64,000 bases of DNA from a virus. Positions 9,822-64,000 of this stretch are shown here, one piece after another. The translations under genes were made by a program, and so were the position numbers. The notes under the pieces were generated by a model. That model did no database searches. It was not told the DNA's origin and saw nothing but the letters and a program-made list of their open reading frames with translations. The DNA is taken from positions 32,001 to 96,000 of IMG/VR virus record IMGVR_UViG_3300027754_000045. One strand, 5' to 3'. Numbering within the stretch: position 1 is the first letter of the stretch; each line of letters starts with the position of its first letter.

Positions 9822-11168
9822 ATGAGTACTATTGGATCTAGTGTTGTTTCTGAATTATCATCAGAAAATTCTTCTGTTGGTTCTACTGGTCCTACTGGTC
9901 CTACTGGTCCTATTGGACCTATTGGTTCTGGTGCAACTGGTGCAACTGGTAATAGCGTTATTGGAATTAGTCTTGTTGATCGTTATATTATAACTACTTT
10001 TTTTGACGGAACTACTTACGGAACTTCAACACAAGCAATAGGTAAAACTGGGGATGGGCTTGTCAAATTAAATTTTTCTAATATTGGAACAGGTAATAGT
10101 TTAGGATATAATATAACAAATAATAAAACACTTGCTATACGACCAATAGTTTTTTTAGAAAACGAAAATTCAAAGTATAGCATAAACTTAAATTCAGAAA
10201 ATAATGCTTATGATATTAATTTAATAACTAATAGTTCTGGTATAACTTTACTTGCTGGAAGTTCATCAAATAAACTATTAACATTCAATTCTACGGGAAA
10301 ACCGCAAACACTAAACAATACATCTGTAAATGAATATGGTGTTAATTTTGTTTCTGCAAATATTTTTGAGTTTGTTCGTGGTGGTGGCTGGACTGGTTCT
10401 ACTGGAGCAATTAATTGTTTTGGAAGTGTTTCTGGTATTACTTGTATTTTAAATCCATGTGTGCCAGAATATGGTAAAATGTATGGTTCAAAATCTCACG
10501 TATATTATACTAATTTTAGAGGAATGACAGCTTCTATAGGAATAATCAACCCCCCAAACGACAAAAGGGTGTATGGATTTGATTTGTTCGTTCGTAATGC
10601 ATTAAATCCTACAAATATTTCTGAAAGGTTTGGTGACAACATTAAATGGTCTTTGAATAGGGCTCCTTGTTTTAGTTTTGGTGGTACTACTTGTGATTTA
10701 AAACTTTCTTTTTTTGGATTAGGAGGTTCTACTTGTTGGTATGGGTCGGCTGTTGCTATTCCAAATTTGAATAATAAAACTTGTCCTGGTCTTTCTTTGT
10801 TTGACTCTAGTTGCTCTGGAGATTCTAATTTTGTAGAAGCAGGAAGTGCTGTTCCTAAAAATATTAACGACATAGGAGCTTGCTGTAGTGTGGATGGTTT
10901 ATGTGTTGAAACTTACGCATCAGAGTGTTCTGGATTTTTCCATGGAGCAGGAACTACTTGCGGTAATATTAATAATTCTATTTGTAATAAAATAGGTGCT
11001 TGTTGTGTTTATATGCCTTCGTATTCTTGTTATGATTACTTAACTTGCACGGAATGTTTGGCTCTTGGTTATGATTCTTCTATTTCAACATTTTTTGGTG
11101 GAAATTTTAGTAATTGTAAAAATGTTAATTGTCTTGAGATAAGCAATAATTATTTTAATTTTTTATAA
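9822..11168 (+). CDS. Collagen-like (GPT) fibre protein with Cys-rich GACC repeats
   Basis: GSTGPTGPTGPIGPIGSGATGATG at the N-terminus; GACCSVDGLC...C.G.F.G.GTTC and GACCVY repeats at the C-terminus. Confidence 0.65.
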   Translation: MSTIGSSVVSELSSENSSVGSTGPTGPTGPIGPIGSGATGATGNSVIGISLVDRYIITTFFDGTTYGTSTQAIGKTGDGLVKLNFSNIGTGNSLGYNITNNKTLAIRPIVFLENENSKYSINLNSENNAYDINLITNSSGITLLAGSSSNKLLTFNSTGKPQTLNNTSVNEYGVNFVSANIFEFVRGGGWTGSTGAINCFGSVSGITCILNPCVPEYGKMYGSKSHVYYTNFRGMTASIGIINPPNDKRVYGFDLFVRNALNPTNISERFGDNIKWSLNRAPCFSFGGTTCDLKLSFFGLGGSTCWYGSAVAIPNLNNKTCPGLSLFDSSCSGDSNFVEAGSAVPKNINDIGACCSVDGLCVETYASECSGFFHGAGTTCGNINNSICNKIGACCVYMPSYSCYDYLTCTECLALGYDSSISTFFGGNFSNCKNVNCLEISNNYFNFL

Positions 11169-55982: not shown

Positions 55983-57227
55983 ATGCCTAAATTATGCCTA
56001 TCGATGATTGTTAAAAATGAAACTCACATTATCAAAGAATGCCTGGATTCAATCTACAAGTATGTGGATTACTGGGTCATTGTGGATACTGGTTCCACAG
56101 ACGGAACTCAAGAGTTAATTAAAAACTTCTTTGCCGAGAAGGGTATTCCTGGAGAACTTCATGAACGCCCATGGGTAGGATTCGGTGATAACCGCACAGA
56201 GGCTCTACAACTCTGCGACGGCAAGGCAGACTGGGCATGGATGATTGATGCCGACGACTATGTGGAAGGAGAGTTTCAGTTTCCGTTTAATGTGGGAGAA
56301 GTTGAAGCATTTGCTCTTGCGTTTGGTCGTGGCGAGTTCAGTTGGTGGAGAACTCAGATTTTCCGCACAGGTATTGGCTGGAGATACGAAGGCATTCTTC
56401 ACGAGTACCCAACAAAGCCAAATGTGGAAACTACTCCTCCAAAGATTGCAAAGCTGGAAGGAAAATATAAAATTGTTGCTCGCACCGTTGGAGCACGTAA
56501 TGTAGGCATTGATCCTATCGAGAAGTATAAACGGGATGCCATCATGTTGGAAGAAGTTCTGGTTAAGGAACCAAACAATGTAAGATACCAGTTCTATCTG
56601 GCTCAAAGCTATTTTGACTCTCAGCAATGGGAAAAGGCAGAAGCCGCCTACAAGAAGCGTGTAGAGATGGGTGGCTGGGAAGAAGAGCAATACTATTCAG
56701 CTTTTCGTATCGCCATGTGCCGTGGTCTTGCCAACAAGCCTTGGATCGAAATTCAGCAAGGATTCCTAGAATCCTGGGAACTTCGACCACACCGAGCAGA
56801 GCCTCTTCATCAGATTGCACGAGTCTACCGAATGATGGGTCATCCACGACTAGCCTTCTTATACGCAAAGATGGCTCTTGATATTCCGTATCCAAAGGAT
56901 GATATCTTGTTCGTCTCCGAAGATGTCTACAAGCATGCTGTTCTAGACGAAATTGCTTCCACTGCTTTCTATGCAGGAAAGCCTCATATGGGATACTCTG
57001 CCTGCAAGAAACTATTACTGGAAAACCTGCTTCCTCCAGATCAGGTTGAGCGTGTGCAAACCAATCTGAGTCAATACTTAAAGTTCTTTGAACAAAGTAA
57101 TCAAATGGAGATTATCAAGCAGTTAGATGAACAAGCCTCAAAACAAGCCGAAAAACGAGACCATAAACCTGCCCTATTTCCAGCACAAAAAAAGAACTTT
57201 AAAACTAGAAAACCAGTACATCGATAA
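55983..57227 (+). CDS. GT2 glycosyltransferase with C-terminal TPR repeats
   Basis: L.MIVKNE...I.ECLDS, VDTGSTDGT, F...R..AL, IDADD, W.Y.G.LHE, then TPR-like RY.FYLAQSY.D and P.RAEP. Confidence 0.9.
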   Translation: MPKLCLSMIVKNETHIIKECLDSIYKYVDYWVIVDTGSTDGTQELIKNFFAEKGIPGELHERPWVGFGDNRTEALQLCDGKADWAWMIDADDYVEGEFQFPFNVGEVEAFALAFGRGEFSWWRTQIFRTGIGWRYEGILHEYPTKPNVETTPPKIAKLEGKYKIVARTVGARNVGIDPIEKYKRDAIMLEEVLVKEPNNVRYQFYLAQSYFDSQQWEKAEAAYKKRVEMGGWEEEQYYSAFRIAMCRGLANKPWIEIQQGFLESWELRPHRAEPLHQIARVYRMMGHPRLAFLYAKMALDIPYPKDDILFVSEDVYKHAVLDEIASTAFYAGKPHMGYSACKKLLLENLLPPDQVERVQTNLSQYLKFFEQSNQMEIIKQLDEQASKQAEKRDHKPALFPAQKKNFKTRKPVHR

Positions 57228-57242
57228 AGCCTAAATACACGT

Positions 57243-57653
57243 ATGACCGCAAAATACGACTTAACAATCAATAAAGGTTCTAATTTTGAGTTTTGGCTTC
57301 AGTATCAAAGAGAAGACAACACTCCAGTCGATTTAAGTGCGTATACTGCCGCACTGGTAGTTAAACGATTTAAAGGACAAGAATATCCTATTTTGTCTAT
57401 GAATAATTCTGGCTTGACTTATGGGTATAGTTCTGGAAATACTCTTGGTCTTTCTGGTTCGGGCAATATAAGTCTTAATACAGATTATGACGGAACAGGA
57501 ATTACTGGAGGAATTTCTGTAAATATCACAGCAAACACAACAAAAAAACTAACTTCAGGAAGTCATTTTTATGATTTAAATTTGATGATAGGAATTACGT
57601 ATTCTCAAAAACTTCTTGAAGGAAAGATTTTCATACAAGACGGATCACGTTAA
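57243..57653 (+). CDS. Small virion structural protein (BppU-N/Ig-like)
   Basis: YDL.I.KGS.F, P.DL..Y, I...I.A..T..L..G...YDL, LLEG.I; CTAAATA late-promoter-like site just upstream. Confidence 0.6.
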   Translation: MTAKYDLTINKGSNFEFWLQYQREDNTPVDLSAYTAALVVKRFKGQEYPILSMNNSGLTYGYSSGNTLGLSGSGNISLNTDYDGTGITGGISVNITANTTKKLTSGSHFYDLNLMIGITYSQKLLEGKIFIQDGSR

Positions 57654-60600
57654 TGAAACTCAAAATTCGTGAACTTTTAAATAAGGTTTTGTTTTTTAAT
57701 AAACCTCAGGAAAATATAACTAAACTTAAAATAATTGAGCAAGTTAAGTTTAATACTGTTTCAGTCAATACTGATTTTTTTGCTAATGATTTTTTTAATT
57801 TTCTTCCTACAATAACAAGTATTGCTCCAACTTCTGGTTTAGTAGCTGGAGGAACGTCATTTACTATAACAGGTACTAATCTTACTGGTACTTCTAGCGT
57901 AACTGTTGGCGGTGTTGCAGCAACCAGCGTTGCTGTTGTTTCTGGGACTTCTGTTACGGCTGTTACTCCAGCAGGAACAGCAGGCGTAAAGAGTGTTGTT
58001 CTTACTACTCCTGGAGGAACAGCCACTGCATCAAGTGCATTTACCTATATTGGCGTACCTACAATAACAACAATAAATCCTAGTACTGGTGTATTAGCTG
58101 GAGGAACACCATTTACTATAGGAGGAACTAATTTATTAAATACTTCTAGTGTAACTGTTGGCGGTGTTGCGGCAACCAGCGTTACTATTGTTTCTAGTAC
58201 TTCTGTTACCGCTGTTACTCCAGTAGGAACAGCAGGCGTAAAGAATATTGTTCTTACTACTCCAGGAGGAACAGTAACATTCTCAAGTGCTTTTGAATAC
58301 ACAGATATTGCTGTATTCCCTACAATAACAATTATTGCTCCAATTTCTGGAGTATTAGCAGGAGGAACAACCTTTGGCATAACAGGAACTAATTTATCAG
58401 ATACTTCTAGCGTAACTATTGGTGGTGTTACCGCTACTAGCCTTACTAATGTTTCTAGTGTTTTTGTTACTGCACGTACTCCAGCAGGAGCAACAATAGG
58501 CTTAAAGAATATTGCTTTAACAACTCCTATAGGAACAGCAATATCAGCAAATGCATTCACGTATATTGGCCTACCTACAATAACAAGTATTGCTCCAACT
58601 TCTGGTGTATTAGCAGGAGGAACAACCTTTGGTATAACAGGAACTAATTTATCAAATACTTCTAGCGTAACTGTTGGTGGTGTTACGGCTACTAGTCTTA
58701 CTAATGTTTCTGATACTTCTGTTACTGCACGTACTCCAGCAGGAGTAACAACAGGATTAAAGAATATCACTTTAATAACTCCAGGAGGAACAACTACTGC
58801 ACCAAATGCATTTACGTATATTGGCCTACCTACAATAACAGAAATTACTCCAAATTCTGGTCCAGTAAGCACCGAAACAACTGTAAATATAGATGGCACT
58901 AATTTATCAGGTACTTCTAGTGTAACTGTTGGCGGTGTTGCGGCAACTAATTTAAATATATTTAGCCCATTTAGCGTAGGGTGTGATTTTCCAGTAGGAA
59001 CAATAGGTGCAAAGAATGTTGTTCTTACTACTCCAGGAGGAATAACTACTGCACTAAATGCATTCACGTATATTGGCGTACCTACAATAACAAGTATTTC
59101 TCCTACTTCTGGTGTAGTAGCAGGAGGAACAACTATTACTATAACAGGTACTAATTTATCAGATACTACTATCGTAACTATTGATGGTGTTGAGGTAACT
59201 AGCTTTACTAATGTTTCTAGTACTTCTGTCACGGTTGTTACTCCAGCAGGAGCAACAATAGGCGCAAAAAATATTGTTCTTACTAATTTCGGAGGAACAG
59301 TTACTGCACCAAACGTATTTACGTATATTGGGCTACCTACAATAACAAGTATTGCTCCAGCTTCTGGCGTATTAGCAGGAGGAACGACTTTAGGAATAAC
59401 AGGAACTAATTTATCAGGTACTTCTAGCGTAACTGTTGGTGGTGTTACGGCTACTAGTCTTACTAATGTTTCTAGTGTTTTTGTTACTGCACGTACTCCA
59501 ACAGGAGCAATAATAGGAGTAAAGAATATTGTTCTTACTACTCCAGGAGGAATAACTACTGCACTAAACGCATTTACCTATATTGGCGTACCTACAATAA
59601 CAACAATAAATCCTAATACTGGTATATTAGCTGGAGGAACATCATTTACTATAGCAGGAACTAATTTATCAAATACTTCTAGCGTAACTGTTGGCGGTGT
59701 TGCGGCAACGAACGTTACTACTCTTTCTGGGACTTCTGTTACTGCAGTTACTCCAGCAGGATCAGCAGGCCTAAAGAATATTGTTCTTACTAATCCAGGA
59801 GGAACAGTTACTGCATCAAATGCTTTTGAATACACAGATATTACTATAATACCTACAATAACAAGTATTTCTCCAACTTCTGGCGTATTAGCAGGAGGAA
59901 CAACTTTAGGCATAACAGGAACTAATTTATCAAATACTACTAGCGTAAAGGTTGATGGTGTTACCGCTACTAGTCTTACTAATGTTTCTAGTGTTTTTGT
60001 TACTGCAGTAACTCCAGCAGGAGCAACAATAGGCCTAAAGAATATTACTCTAAATACTACTCTTGGAGGAGTAACATCAGTAAATGCATTTACTTATATT
60101 GGCCTACCTACAATAACAAGTATTGCTCCAATTTCTGGCGTATTAACAGGAGGAACAACCTTTGGCATAACAGGAACTAATTTATCAGATACTTCTAGCG
60201 TAACTGTTGGTGGTGTTACTGCTACTAGCCTTACTAATGTTTCTAGTGTTTTTGTTACTGCAGTAACTCCAGCAGGAGCAACAACAGGCGCAAAGAATAT
60301 TGTTCTTACTACTCCAGGAGGAATAACTACTGCACTAAACGCATTTACTTATACGGATTTTAATCTTGATTTTGCAAGAATACAAGTATTAGCAGATACT
60401 CGTATAAGTGATTTGTGGGTATTAGATACTACAAAAGCAAAACCTGTTGGTGTTGTTGCTGGGAAGTTTTATGCTCAAAGTGGCATTGATCGTTCTCAAG
60501 GAGGTTACACATCTGCTCCTAATGGAAGATTGACAAAATGGGCACAACCATTATTTTATACTCCCAGATCTATGGCAGATGTTATTAAAGGAACAACTGC

Positions 60601-63600
60601 AATTTCTGGCTTATGTGCAAGCCTAACTTATAATAAATTTGGCATTTTAAAAAATTTAAATTATTTTTATGGTGGACAGACCTCTGGTAGTGAAGGATCG
60701 GTTAATATGTCACGCCTATTGAGACTCAAAGAAGGAATAACTGGAGGAAAAAATGTAATCAAAAGACCGTATTCTTTTAATGATATTAAAACTTTTGGTT
60801 TAAGTGCAGGTCATACACTTTTTGGTAATATTAATAGTGATAAAACAGTAACTGCTGTAGCAATAGCATACAATAATCCAAACTCTTGGTCTCTAAAAAG
60901 AAATATGTTACTAAGTAGTTTAAGTCAAATTGATGAATGGCAATCTTATAGAGTTTTAAATTATTTAACACCTCTTGCTATTTCCTGGAGATTTCAAAAA
61001 GAAATCAGACAAAATAGTATAGGATTTTCAAATAATGTTTCACAAATATCTGAATCAGAACTTAACGCAGTAAATACAGATACTCTAAATCATCTTAAAA
61101 TATTATTAGACGAATATAAAGACCATTATCCGCTAGCAAGACCGAATAACGGAGTGAATAATACTCTAGGTAGTAACCAAACTTGGCGTGGAGAGGCAAC
61201 TAGTGGCTATCCTATGGGTCTGTGTGGTTCTTTTGGTGTTCGAACATCTCCATATCCGTTAGGAGCAACTCTTGATTTTATTCCTGCACTAGGAGTAAAC
61301 GGAACAACCTTAGATACTTGGTCTCCTCAAGGATGGACAGCAGATACAGGAATGTATTTATTTGACGGTTGGGGTATGAGATATATTTTAGAAAATATGA
61401 TATATTTGGACGGAGTAACATCAGTAATAGAACCAGTTACAACAACAACTCAACTTAAAGCAGATTCTTCGTGGAATAATATTCTTATAGAAGTAAAAAA
61501 ATTAATGCTTAAAGAAATTTTTGATTATGTGATACACACAGAAGAAGGAAGAGCCTGGTATGCTAAAAGAAAGTATTGGCCAGACGGTTCAGAGCGAGAC
61601 TCACTGATTTATGCAGACTCAAACCCAAATCGAATATGGACAGAACAAGCAACTGGTTTAACAGGAATTAAGTATTATTATAATCATTATTTTAATGGAA
61701 CTGGTTATTGGTATCCAGAACCAGATAATAAAGGATATGTAGGAACCAATCAAAATATTACTCCTATGGCATATCGTATGTTAGCCACAATGTATTTGTA
61801 TCCTTATATGACACTAGACAAAGAAAGAACTGCTCTTTTATCTGCGTATAATATGATGGCAGAAGAATGTGCTTCGGTGTTAGAACGATTTTTAATGGGA
61901 GTTACTTCTTCTCAAGAAAATAGTGCTGGATATTGGACGGAAGGTTGGGGATATGCTGCACAATCTATGCCAGATTTTTTGAAAATATTAACCTCTATGA
62001 AAACTATGGGAGACAGGAGACTATGGGACAAAAAGTCAACTCCAGACTATTTCAATAAAACAATACCAGGAATTTCTTATAGTTCTTGGACAAACAATAC
62101 TTGGAAATGGATCGTTAGTAGAATAATGCCAAATAATTTAATTATTAATTCTGGATCATGCAATAGTTCTGGATGGGAAACTATAGGCAACTCTTATCAA
62201 TTTACACCGTGGGGAGTGTATTTAACTGCTGTGAATGCAAGCGAAAGTCCTACTCCAGGAACCACGGGATCTGCAATTAGCGAACTTCATGATTGGTTTG
62301 ATAATAACGCAGGATACGAAGAAGAAATTGAATATTTTTACAATGTTAGAAAATATCAAGAACGTAATACATATAACGAAAAAATTAACACTCCTTGGTT
62401 TTACTCTCCAGGGGACTGTATAGTTACTTGGAAGTCGGAACACGTAATACCAAAATTTCAAAGTGATTGGACTTACGGAAATAATACAGAAAGACCTGAT
62501 GGTAAACCAGGATACGTTGTTAATAATTTTAATAAACCTTTAATTTTTGGTCTTTGGGCTAAGGGCGTAGGAGTTAGTGACGAAAAAACTAATGTTGATT
62601 GCGGTCACATTTCTGCTTATTTGGGCGACGCTGCATTACTAATAGAGACTGGTGAACCTAGACAGTTACTGGAATTTGATAATGATAAAACAAATAACTA
62701 TTTTTACGAAAGAGAAACTTTCAGGGTAAAAGGACATAATGTTATGCAATTGGGAGAAAGACTTGATTACAAGAATCCCAAATATGCTCCTTGGACTGGA
62801 GTAACATTTACCGCAACTGGTGGTAGTGCATTTTTAAATGCAACTTCAAATTATAATGTTAGACCATTAAAAATAAGTACTCCTCAACCATTGGGTGATA
62901 ATCGACCTAATCCAAAAGATGGAGGTTTTCCAACATGGGCAGAAAGTGATCCTGCCTGGGATAATGTATCTGACGGATTTTTATATCTTGCAGGAACAAC
63001 ACAAATAGCGAATACACGAGGAGGAGATACTGCACAATATTTGGCTCAATCCAGTAATATTCTTGGTGGATCAGAAACTATAGACGGAAGAGCTGGTCAA
63101 TACGTATTTGAGCCGTATCAATACCAAATAAAAACCTGCACAAGAGGTATTACCTGGGAATATTCTGCTGGTGTTGCAAAAATTAGAATTCAGGATATTG
63201 TGGGAATAAGTGCATTCAACAACAATCCATCGTTCTGGTCAGCAACTGGTCCGTATGCAACAGGACCAGACACAAGAGTATATTATCGTTTTCATACTGG
63301 ATATACTGGAGCAAACGATATAGCAGGAAATCCAAGTTCAACTAGTTGGCCATTCTTTACCACCACAGACGCAGGATTAACTTTCTTTTCAGTTTCTGGC
63401 ACAAACAACAAGACTTGGCAAGCAGCGTGGACACAACCAATACCGTATAATACAATGGCATATGATGGTGTTGTGAGCAGATTAGATTCTGTTGGTGTCA
63501 CAATGACCTTTGTTGGAAGTCAGCCAATTAAATTAACAAAAGAATTATCAGTAAATCATTCTTTTAAATATTCTTCAGTAACTAAACCAGGAATAGGAAT

Positions 63601-64000
63601 TACTGCTCCTAGTCGCCATTACGCAATTAATATTTTGTTAGGACTATCTGGTGGAGCGTTTCACGACGAGAAAAACCTTACTCTTAATACCACTATTGAT
63701 GCGGCAGTTAAAAAGAGAGATAACTTTACTATATTATTTCAAGAGGACGTTACAGTACAACAAGAAAATAAATTTAATGCACTAGGAGCAAAGAAATATT
63801 ACATAAACTCTAGAGGACTTTCTGCAGGTAGTTGGAATTTATCCCAATCAAACATAGATGCAGCTGTTGCATATTTAAAAGGAGATCTTAATGAACAAGG
63901 AAGTATGGTATTTGGTAGAGGCATAACTGCAACCAGTAAATCTTTTATATTTTTAGATTTTGAATCAACGTATGATCCTATGACTAAATCAGGAGGACCT
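57653..64000 (+). CDS. Giant protein (>=2116 aa, runs off the window): 10 IPT/TIG repeats + heparinase II/III-like domain + possible further glycosidase domain
   Basis: ATG overlaps the upstream TAA (TAATG). Repeat starts all fall in one frame, and 60301-64000 was translated by hand with no stop. Motifs: PTITSI.P.SG..AGGT...ITGTNL...V.VGG...VTA.TP.G...TPGG...AFTY, GYWTEGWGY, D.GH...LIETG, GHNV. Confidence 0.9.
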   Translation, partial: MKLKIRELLNKVLFFNKPQENITKLKIIEQVKFNTVSVNTDFFANDFFNFLPTITSIAPTSGLVAGGTSFTITGTNLTGTSSVTVGGVAATSVAVVSGTSVTAVTPAGTAGVKSVVLTTPGGTATASSAFTYIGVPTITTINPSTGVLAGGTPFTIGGTNLLNTSSVTVGGVAATSVTIVSSTSVTAVTPVGTAGVKNIVLTTPGGTVTFSSAFEYTDIAVFPTITIIAPISGVLAGGTTFGITGTNLSDTSSVTIGGVTATSLTNVSSVFVTARTPAGATIGLKNIALTTPIGTAISANAFTYIGLPTITSIAPTSGVLAGGTTFGITGTNLSNTSSVTVGGVTATSLTNVSDTSVTARTPAGVTTGLKNITLITPGGTTTAPNAFTYIGLPTITEITPNSGPVSTETTVNIDGTNLSGTSSVTVGGVAATNLNIFSPFSVGCDFPVGTIGAKNVVLTTPGGITTALNAFTYIGVPTITSISPTSGVVAGGTTITITGTNLSDTTIVTIDGVEVTSFTNVSSTSVTVVTPAGATIGAKNIVLTNFGGTVTAPNVFTYIGLPTITSIAPASGVLAGGTTLGITGTNLSGTSSVTVGGVTATSLTNVSSVFVTARTPTGAIIGVKNIVLTTPGGITTALNAFTYIGVPTITTINPNTGILAGGTSFTIAGTNLSNTSSVTVGGVAATNVTTLSGTSVTAVTPAGSAGLKNIVLTNPGGTVTASNAFEYTDITIIPTITSISPTSGVLAGGTTLGITGTNLSNTTSVKVDGVTATSLTNVSSVFVTAVTPAGATIGLKNITLNTTLGGVTSVNAFTYIGLPTITSIAPISGVLTGGTTFGITGTNLSDTSSVTVGGVTATSLTNVSSVFVTAVTPAGATTGAKNIVLTTPGGITTALNAFTYTDFNLDFARIQVLADTRISDLWVLDTTKAKPVGVVAGKFYAQSGIDRSQGGYTSAPNGRLTKWAQPLFYTPRSMADVIKGTTAISGLCASLTYNKFGILKNLNYFYGGQTSGSEGSVNMSRLLRLKEGITGGKNVIKRPYSFNDIKTFGLSAGHTLFGNINSDKTVTAVAIAYNNPNSWSLKRNMLLSSLSQIDEWQSYRVLNYLTPLAISWRFQKEIRQNSIGFSNNVSQISESELNAVNTDTLNHLKILLDEYKDHYPLARPNNGVNNTLGSNQTWRGEATSGYPMGLCGSFGVRTSPYPLGATLDFIPALGVNGTTLDTWSPQGWTADTGMYLFDGWGMRYILENMIYLDGVTSVIEPVTTTTQLKADSSWNNILIEVKKLMLKEIFDYVIHTEEGRAWYAKRKYWPDGSERDSLIYADSNPNRIWTEQATGLTGIKYYYNHYFNGTGYWYPEPDNKGYVGTNQNITPMAYRMLATMYLYPYMTLDKERTALLSAYNMMAEECASVLERFLMGVTSSQENSAGYWTEGWGYAAQSMPDFLKILTSMKTMGDRRLWDKKSTPDYFNKTIPGISYSSWTNNTWKWIVSRIMPNNLIINSGSCNSSGWETIGNSYQFTPWGVYLTAVNASESPTPGTTGSAISELHDWFDNNAGYEEEIEYFYNVRKYQERNTYNEKINTPWFYSPGDCIVTWKSEHVIPKFQSDWTYGNNTERPDGKPGYVVNNFNKPLIFGLWAKGVGVSDEKTNVDCGHISAYLGDAALLIETGEPRQLLEFDNDKTNNYFYERETFRVKGHNVMQLGERLDYKNPKYAPWTGVTFTATGGSAFLNATSNYNVRPLKISTPQPLGDNRPNPKDGGFPTWAESDPAWDNVSDGFLYLAGTTQIANTRGGDTAQYLAQSSNILGGSETIDGRAGQYVFEPYQYQIKTCTRGITWEYSAGVAKIRIQDIVGISAFNNNPSFWSATGPYATGPDTRVYYRFHTGYTGANDIAGNPSSTSWPFFTTTDAGLTFFSVSGTNNKTWQAAWTQPIPYNTMAYDGVVSRLDSVGVTMTFVGSQPIKLTKELSVNHSFKYSSVTKPGIGITAPSRHYAINILLGLSGGAFHDEKNLTLNTTIDAAVKKRDNFTILFQEDVTVQQENKFNALGAKKYYINSRGLSAGSWNLSQSNIDAAVAYLKGDLNEQGSMVFGRGITATSKSFIFLDFESTYDPMTKSGGP
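57806..60352 (+). repeat. Ten tandem ~252-261-bp repeats encoding IPT/TIG Ig-like domains
   Basis: Unit starts (cctacaataac) at 57806, 58058, 58319, 58574, 58829, 59081, 59336, 59591, 59852, 60107. Confidence 0.92.

Follow-up and report, generated by a model that had tools for sequence, protein, structure and literature searches.

What does a giant viral protein do with more than a thousand residues that match no Pfam or PHROG family? This question is raised by a window of 64,000 nucleotides (bases 32001-96000 of the 153,850-bp IMG/VR metagenomic virus record IMGVR_UViG_3300027754_000045), in which an open reading frame (ORF) starting at window position 57653 stays open to the window end, its full length in the record being 2,513 amino acids (aa; L002:653-8194). 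The ~1,190 residues that follow an array of immunoglobulin (Ig)-like repeats in this protein have no Pfam or PHROG match. Here we find that they hold a module with the fold of the heparinase II/III-type polysaccharide lyases (PL), as an earlier note on this DNA had proposed, and that a lysine occupies the position of the catalytic histidine. The reading that we favour, with a probability of roughly one half, is that the module would be a virion-borne depolymerase, active through a chemically retuned Tyr-Lys lyase site. The module and its two halves are placed as follows.

60491..63703, + strand: heparinase II/III-like lyase module, residues 947-2017, with several large clade-specific insertions (delimited by hhalign and VIA)
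60521..62362, + strand: helical (alpha/alpha) toroid half, residues ~957-1570 (DSSP of the model; structure alignment with the PL33, PL35 and PL17 toroids)
62390..63715, + strand: antiparallel beta-sandwich half, residues ~1580-2021 (model, structure alignment and hhalign)

An AlphaFold2 model of the module was built from an 18-sequence alignment (mean predicted local distance difference test score, pLDDT, 60.6; predicted template modelling score 0.70; 493 residues with pLDDT >= 70). According to DSSP, it is all-helical to about residue 670 of the model and beta-rich from there to residue 1121. Compared with the PDB by Foldseek, all 40 of the 40 matches at E <= 0.001 were enzymes made of a toroid and beta-sheets, drawn from PL33, PL15, PL35, PL17, PL21, PL39, PL12 and PL40 together with human DS-epimerase 1, and the best of them was a PL33 lyase (E 3e-8, template modelling score 0.56 on the target). 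The structural aligner VIA-align gave Z scores of 15.3-19.7 over 505-565 aligned residues, spanning model residues 57-1122 and the target chains almost whole, while the next tier, composed of PL8 hyaluronate lyases and mutarotases, did not exceed a Z of 11.3. Thus the best 33-40 PDB matches belong without exception to these eight PL families or to DS-epimerase 1, and the model confirms the predicted toroid plus antiparallel beta-sandwich fold. The low-confidence parts of the model mostly correspond to the clade-specific insertions. The large insertions relative to bacterial heparinase II/III proteins lie at model residues 260-339, 399-464 and 840-920 (protein ~1160-1239, 1299-1364 and 1740-1820; window ~61131-63112). 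AlphaFold modelled them without structure, yet some of the best-conserved motifs of the clade lie in them, e.g. HYPLAR, NTWSPQGWTAD.GMYLFDGW and FEPYQYQI.

Can the same kinship be recovered from the amino acid sequence? The phage protein alone, searched against Pfam, PHROGs and the PDB sequences, gave nothing lyase-like. A match to a GH13 dextran glucosidase over 55 residues (E 0.006) is at chance level and was discarded; the only other match was to BamE. Likewise, PF07940 (Hepar_II_III_C) did not match at E <= 1, either in hmmscan of the protein or in a six-frame search of the whole phage genome, so that the direct link to a Hepar_II_III profile expected in the earlier note was not found. The link does exist transitively. 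When 1.84 billion cluster representatives were searched exhaustively with phmmer, only 13 relatives came back, among them the distant homologue P0014 at E 5.7e-6. On four such homologues (P0009, P0013, P0014 and P0015) PF07940 falls below threshold, at E 0.017 to 7.5e-5, precisely at the position of DEKTNVD...GHN, and the 71 relatives of P0014 itself mostly bear PF07940, some of them, from Planctomycetota or Opitutaceae, being named 'heparinase II/III family protein'. We therefore compared two profiles, A4, made of 14 closer relatives of the phage protein and excluding P0013-15, and A5, made of 24 relatives of P0014. In hhalign they align with a probability of 100% and E values of 3e-54 to 4e-55, over 616-623 columns at 23-24% identity, from query 47-1117 to template 61-685 of 686. 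Against the PDB, A5 retrieves the PL35 GAGase II (8khv, E 8e-12), PL33 (1.4e-11), the PL35 chondroitinase 9O3Q, DS-epi1 (2.4e-5) and PL15 (0.019), and the profile of the phage family matches a single solved enzyme directly, the PL33 lyase BtPL33HA, at E 0.002. At the level of sequence profiles, the module is thus shown to be homologous over its whole length to bacterial PF07940 proteins of the heparinase II/III family.

Relatives were also sought in other collections. No match to the module, to the clade-2 member P0006 or to the bacterial relative P0056 was obtained by tblastn in 50,697 deposited phage records, and the scan of 185,579 GTDB species genomes with clade patterns gave 76 pattern matches and no true relative. 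Two viral contigs were found when viral contigs were scanned with the single protein, and nine loci in a metagenome scan; among predicted viral protein structures there was one significant match only (A0A5Q2W4E8, E 3.6e-7).

The second issue is the state of the active site. The motifs that had been quoted for this frame, namely TNQNITP (61745), GYWTEGWGY (61928), DEKTNVDCGH (62579), GHNV (62732) and YYRFH (with Arg1879/His1881 at 63287-63295), can all be read in it at the positions given, and the catalytic residues could be aligned with those of solved lyases. The numbering was checked on GAGase II (Tyr246, Asn191/192), BtPL33HA (Tyr291, His444, Tyr470, Phe475) and Atu3025 (His311, Tyr365). 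The residues concerned are the following.

61748..61753, + strand: Asn1366-Gln1367 in TNQNITP, equivalent to Asn191-Asn192 of PL35 GAGase II and Asn237-Asn238 of PL33 (8khv and 8r73 alignments)
61952..61954, + strand: Tyr1434 in EGWGY, equivalent to the catalytic Tyr (PL33 Tyr291, PL35 Tyr246, PL15 Tyr365)
62585..62599, + strand: K-T-N-V-D in place of H-x-H-x-D (three alignments)
62645..62647, + strand: Glu1665 in LLIETG, conservatively replacing a metal-binding Asp (GAGase II Asp421, PL33 Asp464)
62735..62737, + strand: His1695 in GHN, equivalent to the metal ligand His457 of GAGase II and retained

The catalytic tyrosine is kept as Tyr1434. The second position of the Asn pair is the carboxylate neutraliser in PL33 (Asn238) and PL35 (Asn192), and here the residue aligned with it is Gln1367, which would preserve the amide function; one weaker alignment shifts this register by 1-2 residues, and Gln stands likewise at the neutraliser position in the PF07940-bearing sister family. 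The reading of HxHxD as KTNVD is borne out by three independent alignments (family profile against PL33, hhalign of A4 with A5, and A5 against the PDB), the first of which places K-x-[NH]-x-D on H444-N-H446-N-D448 of BtPL33HA. Lys1645 (62585-62587) consequently falls on the catalytic His, which is His444 in PL33, His401 in PL35 and His406, His424, His413 or His531 elsewhere in the superfamily. Asn1647 occupies the position of the metal ligand His403, and Asp1649 is retained as the equivalent of Asp405. The structural metal site, His-Asp-Asp-His in the relatives, thus reads Asn1647/Asp1649/Glu1665/His1695, with two ligands identical, one conservatively changed and one lost. The lid Tyr (Tyr470/Tyr427) has become Leu1672. 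The Asp of the usual N..D is indeed missing, as had been noticed; however, NSGS is not its replacement, a better alignment being Asn1499...Asn1504 with a 3-residue insertion.

How stable are these changes? The 14-member clade reaches down to ~30% identity (range about 30-93%), and 11% of its alignment columns are invariant. Asn1366, Gln1367, Glu1430, Tyr1434, Lys1645, Asp1649, His1652 and His1695 are among them, and the position of Glu1665 is always Glu or Asp. The clade splits into a K-x-H-x-D subclade, which keeps the Asp of N..D, and a K-x-N-x-D subclade that includes the present protein and in which this Asp is an Asn. In the bacterial family, as in the more distant P0013-15, the motif is H-x-[HN]-x-D. 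In a quick IQ-TREE tree with midpoint root, one long branch (length 1.74; support of 100 in the Shimodaira-Hasegawa-like approximate likelihood ratio test) divides all Lys-bearing sequences from the others, and the support for the two subclades is 87 and 98. The Lys clade would then be phage-only and set apart from the bacterial clade by one long branch. A single retuning of the site, followed by its maintenance, would give this pattern, which is less expected of a decayed enzyme. Because the substituted site is invariant, we lean towards a working, altered site on the question, raised from the start, of whether such a module has changed its chemistry or is dead.

Several observations weigh against an active module. 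In PL33, the H444A mutation causes a ~17,000-fold loss of activity, and His444 is proposed to activate Tyr291 (PMC11848413); in PL35, mutation of His403, Asp405, Asp421 or His457 inactivates the enzyme (PMC12088678). The phage module has lost the catalytic His, one metal His and the lid Tyr, its model is of no more than moderate quality (460 residues lie below a pLDDT of 50, and the mean is 60.6), and strict conservation is equally expected of a pure binding site, so that the pattern would not separate catalysis from tight binding. The chief rival to an active lyase is accordingly a pseudo-enzyme that kept the fold and the cleft and lost catalysis, and that would only bind glycans, as a head for receptor recognition borne by the Ig stalk, the cutting being left to the C-terminal domain or to neighbouring beta-helix spikes. 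The replacement of a metal Asp by Glu, added to the three losses above, goes in this direction, as do the nearly dead His mutants of PL33 and PL35 and the separate beta-helix depolymerase-like genes that adjoin homologues in related phages. However, such residues usually drift in dead enzymes, and here no member of the clade, over the whole range of identities, departs from the Tyr in its EG context, from the Asn/Gln pair or from the Lys that replaces His; moreover, both the N..D Asp and the second His persist in the sister subclade, which suggests tuning by steps and not decay. We therefore hold a binding-only head to be a serious contender that is nonetheless doubtful.

Is a Tyr-Lys site chemically reasonable? 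Lysine is the Bronsted base in other lyase families, e.g. PL3 and PL9, and in the Tyr-Lys pairs of unrelated enzymes it lowers the pKa of the Tyr; a Tyr-Lys form of the Tyr-His dyad is therefore chemically plausible. In the mechanism that we propose for an active module, an acidic, uronate-containing polysaccharide of the host surface would be held in the cleft between toroid and beta-sandwich and cut by beta-elimination. Tyr1434 would play the base/acid role, the carboxylate would be neutralised by the amides of Asn1366/Gln1367, and Lys1645, in place of His, would tune or activate the Tyr, giving a Tyr-Lys instead of a Tyr-His pair. The omega-loop would be held by the remodelled metal site, formed by Asp1649, Glu1665, His1695 and perhaps His1652, and the capsule or slime layer would thereby be opened to the virion.

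The same fold could also carry another chemistry, in which the polymer is modified and not cut, for instance by a uronate C5-epimerase similar to DS-epimerase 1, or in which a non-uronate acidic sugar is the target. DS-epi1 (6hzn) has the same fold and Tyr/His apparatus and matches the model as well as the lyases do (VIA Z 16.9), the bacterial sister family also matches it at E 2.4e-5, and the kinship of lyases and epimerases has been stressed (PMC11848413). On the other hand, DS-epi1 is no closer than PL33, PL35 or PL17, the gene is set among spikes and fibres, and no use is known for an epimerase on a phage fibre, so that we rate this chemistry as improbable.

The favoured lyase can be situated among known enzymes. 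The bacterial PF07940 proteins, from Planctomycetota and Verrucomicrobiota genomes or metagenome-assembled genomes (e.g. P0056 and P0089), have the motifs SNQW, EGxxY, VWRS, W.KGG, D.GH, GHN.MQ.GE and RFHTG in common with the phage module. They are stand-alone proteins of 600-700 aa that keep HxHxD, the N..D Asp and the lid Tyr, whereas in the phage clade the first His is a Lys, insertions add ~450 residues, and the module is joined to stalks and further domains. Among cellular proteins, the nearest relatives are uncharacterised PF07940 proteins of Planctomycetota, Phycisphaerales and Opitutaceae, a weak pointer to the origin of the gene or to the host, and not evidence of either.

PL33, represented by BtPL33HA (BT4410; PDB 8R6Z/8R70/8R75), which acts on hyaluronan, chondroitin and gellan, aligns with the model at VIA Z 17.4-17.8 over about 550 of ~610 residues and is the sole family to which the profile leads directly in the PDB. 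Asn238, Tyr291 and His444 are invariant in PL33 (PMC11848413). At these positions the phage module reads Gln1367, Tyr and Lys1645, Tyr470 is not kept, and the identity is 9-12%; the module is therefore not a member of PL33. The top VIA match belongs to PL35 (8KHV, 8KHW, 9O3Q): 9o3q, with a Z of 19.7 and 526 of 582 residues aligned, is built of the same two domains, its omega-loop holding a metal. The PL35 set Tyr246/His401/Asn192 and His403/Asp405/Asp421/His457 (PMC12088678) becomes Tyr/Lys/Gln and Asn/Asp/Glu/His in the phage module.

In phages, this class of fold is already known, though rare, as it was found in 11 of 984 depolymerase candidates, i.e. ~1% (PMC11326577), and in 29 depolymerase domains of Klebsiella prophages, <1% (PMC12491483). 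The toroid model thus agrees with the view, put forward before any structure was predicted here, that the module is not the usual beta-helix depolymerase. Beta-helix tailspikes (PF12708, pectate-lyase-like) probably fill the same role and occur in the same gene neighbourhood, two of them following one of the homologues; their fold, however, is entirely different, and we found no evidence for their trimeric beta-helix architecture in the giant protein. To our knowledge, nearly all known phage depolymerases are beta-helix or beta-propeller proteins, and the toroid type is essentially uncharacterised. An instance from another virus is the baculovirus protein ODV-E66 (a PL23 chondroitin lyase, PDB 3VSM). 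Like ODV-E66 and the phage toroid depolymerases, the present protein would put an alpha/alpha toroid, and not a beta-helix, on a viral particle. In PL23 a Tyr/His pair lies inside the toroid (PMC12088678). What appears new is a phage-specific, Pfam-invisible branch of heparinase II/III, with a substituted catalytic pair and metal site, carried on giant modular fibres.

Where would such an enzyme act? The remainder of the giant protein and the sequence just upstream are laid out as follows.

57232..57238, + strand: CTAAATA, resembling the core of T4 late promoters, 5 nt before the 136-aa gene's ATG
57243..57653, + strand: 136-aa partner gene (phrog_1084, E 1.6e-16), directly preceding the giant gene here and in related phages
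57653..57814, + strand: N-terminal 54 residues of the giant protein, a candidate virion-attachment adaptor
57815..60331, + strand: stalk of ten IPT/TIG (Ig-like) repeats, residues ~55-893 (PF01833, E 7e-112, 10 stretches)
63899..64000, + strand (L002:6899-8191): start of the C-terminal domain, residues ~2083-2513, which runs 1,191 nt past the window (motifs read)

We picture the giant protein as a modular fibre of a T4-like phage, which would consist of an N-terminal adaptor, a ten-Ig stalk, the lyase module and a swappable C-terminal domain. The 54 N-terminal residues are 68-87% identical to those of P0003, P0016, P0105 and P0017 and 30-35% identical to those of P0018 and of the 511-aa P0021, and this segment is conserved among relatives whose downstream parts differ. 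A search of the same genome for a paralogue of the first 60 residues gave none, and we rejected on this ground the idea of a fibre adaptor common to several proteins of this phage. The stalk varies among the relatives, being made of IPT repeats, of FN3 repeats or absent, and many relatives have no C-terminal domain. In P0018 the lyase module is 49% identical to that of the giant protein, while the linker and C-terminal domain reach 78%; such mosaic identities therefore indicate a recombinational exchange of the distal module between phage lineages.

The neighbouring genes tell a similar story. The stop of the 136-aa gene overlaps the start of the giant ORF (ATGA), and a GT2-TPR glycosyltransferase gene precedes it, the trio spanning window 55983-57653 up to the giant gene. 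This order, GT2-TPR, ~136-aa phrog_1084 protein and giant lyase-like gene, recurs in at least three phage contigs (the window, L004:5532-7198 and L012:16-1591). The ~136-aa protein may assist the giant fibre as its chaperone or adaptor; its resemblance to LtfC and to L-shaped-tail-fibre-assembly proteins is weak (phrog_3304, E 0.0039; PF23926, E 0.0017, below cut-off). Late expression from the CTAAATA core is conceivable, and this core likewise speaks for a virion role. Downstream of the giant gene come a collagen-like protein and a 1,140-aa ORF. The 146-kb viral contig L004 has a 2,041-aa homologue, and behind it come two beta-helix proteins of the pectate-lyase-like type (PF12708) and a collagen-like protein of 1,428 aa (L004:13626-21222), which points to a multi-depolymerase host-recognition cluster. 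In L012 a tail-spike-like gene comes after the giant gene, and L013 has a 1,007-aa homologue devoid of any stalk among tail-spike-like genes. All the gene contexts of relatives that could be inspected are phage-like. It is because of these spike and fibre neighbours, the recurring trio, the shuffled domains and the phage-like contexts that we infer a role as virion depolymerase or receptor-binding fibre.

These data also bear on whether the protein is part of the virion at all. It could instead be a soluble late enzyme, freed at lysis, which would clear host exopolysaccharide for the escape or spread of the progeny. Indeed, no recognisable tail-attachment domain was found in the protein, its adaptor being without a paralogue in the genome, and the gene follows a glycan-biosynthesis island and does not lie in the baseplate block. 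Against this stand the conserved 54-residue segment ahead of swappable modules and the long Ig-like stalk, and the linkage to spike, fibre and collagen-like genes and to the phrog_1084 partner across phages also speaks for a virion protein. We regard a soluble enzyme as unlikely.

The C-terminal domain could bring a second activity to the virion fibre. Two of its motifs, FLDFES (Asp2102/Glu2104) and GVMIWGS, which lies 230 residues further on and ahead of an SH3-like stretch, recall the D-x-E and WG motifs of GH56 hyaluronidases, of which the domain may be a relative. A Pfam search of the ~430 residues, including PF01630, gave no match at E <= 5; in Foldseek, GH56 chains appeared only at E 0.76-1.4, with nothing below 0.46, on a poor model (pLDDT 39.8). 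An ESM Atlas neighbour bearing PF01630 stands at rank 7 with a score of 0.88, a weak lead. The GH56-bearing ESM Atlas cluster is commonest in Planctomycetota, which again is a weak pointer and not evidence of origin or host. The most conserved stretch of the domain, residues ~2397-2445 (L002:7841-7987; ...ENYIKG...GNRWWW...P.EW...), matches eukaryotic-type SH3 domains (intersectin, dynamin-binding protein) at E 0.08-0.18 with a 3-sequence profile, and may be an SH3-like binding module. P0021, a stand-alone relative, begins with a similar N-terminal adaptor.

Taken further, the phage-only clade could be a new polysaccharide-lyase family, defined by a Tyr-Lys pair and an Asp/Glu/His site where the superfamily has its Tyr-His pair and His-rich metal site, and in this protein it would share the stalk of ten Ig domains with a second glycanase, GH56-like, and with an SH3-like binder, as a two-enzyme depolymerase fibre for an acidic, glycosaminoglycan-like glycan of the bacterial envelope. 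This larger proposal is possible and we offer it tentatively. For the module by itself, activity would define a new PL family, possibly with a new acidic-glycan specificity. Its invariant His to Lys change, at a position where mutation cripples the solved relatives, is a natural experiment on Tyr activation in the lyase/epimerase superfamily. Furthermore, the clade is invisible to Pfam, to PHROGs and to BLAST against deposited phages, yet firmly tied to the heparinase II/III superfamily; there are therefore more folds for the annotation tools of phage depolymerases to recognise. The cellular relatives in Planctomycetota/Verrucomicrobiota point weakly to a poorly studied host group.

The record as a whole has the gene set of a T4-like myophage, all of it on the + strand: a gp6-type baseplate wedge, the large terminase, the gp20 portal and the gp23 major head protein, as well as a UvsW-type helicase and a gp46-like nuclease. 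Nothing points to a cyanophage: psbA was looked for in the record and is not present, and the identity of the major head protein to gp23 of cyanomyoviruses does not exceed 56%. The octamer TATAAATA is seen 12 times in the window (e.g. at 11164, 23186 and 28672), always on the + strand and several times shortly 5' of ORF starts; this is no enrichment in the window, as 13.2 occurrences are expected by chance. Outside the window, the same phage carries a second giant ORF of 2,210 aa on the + strand (C1:14119-20751).

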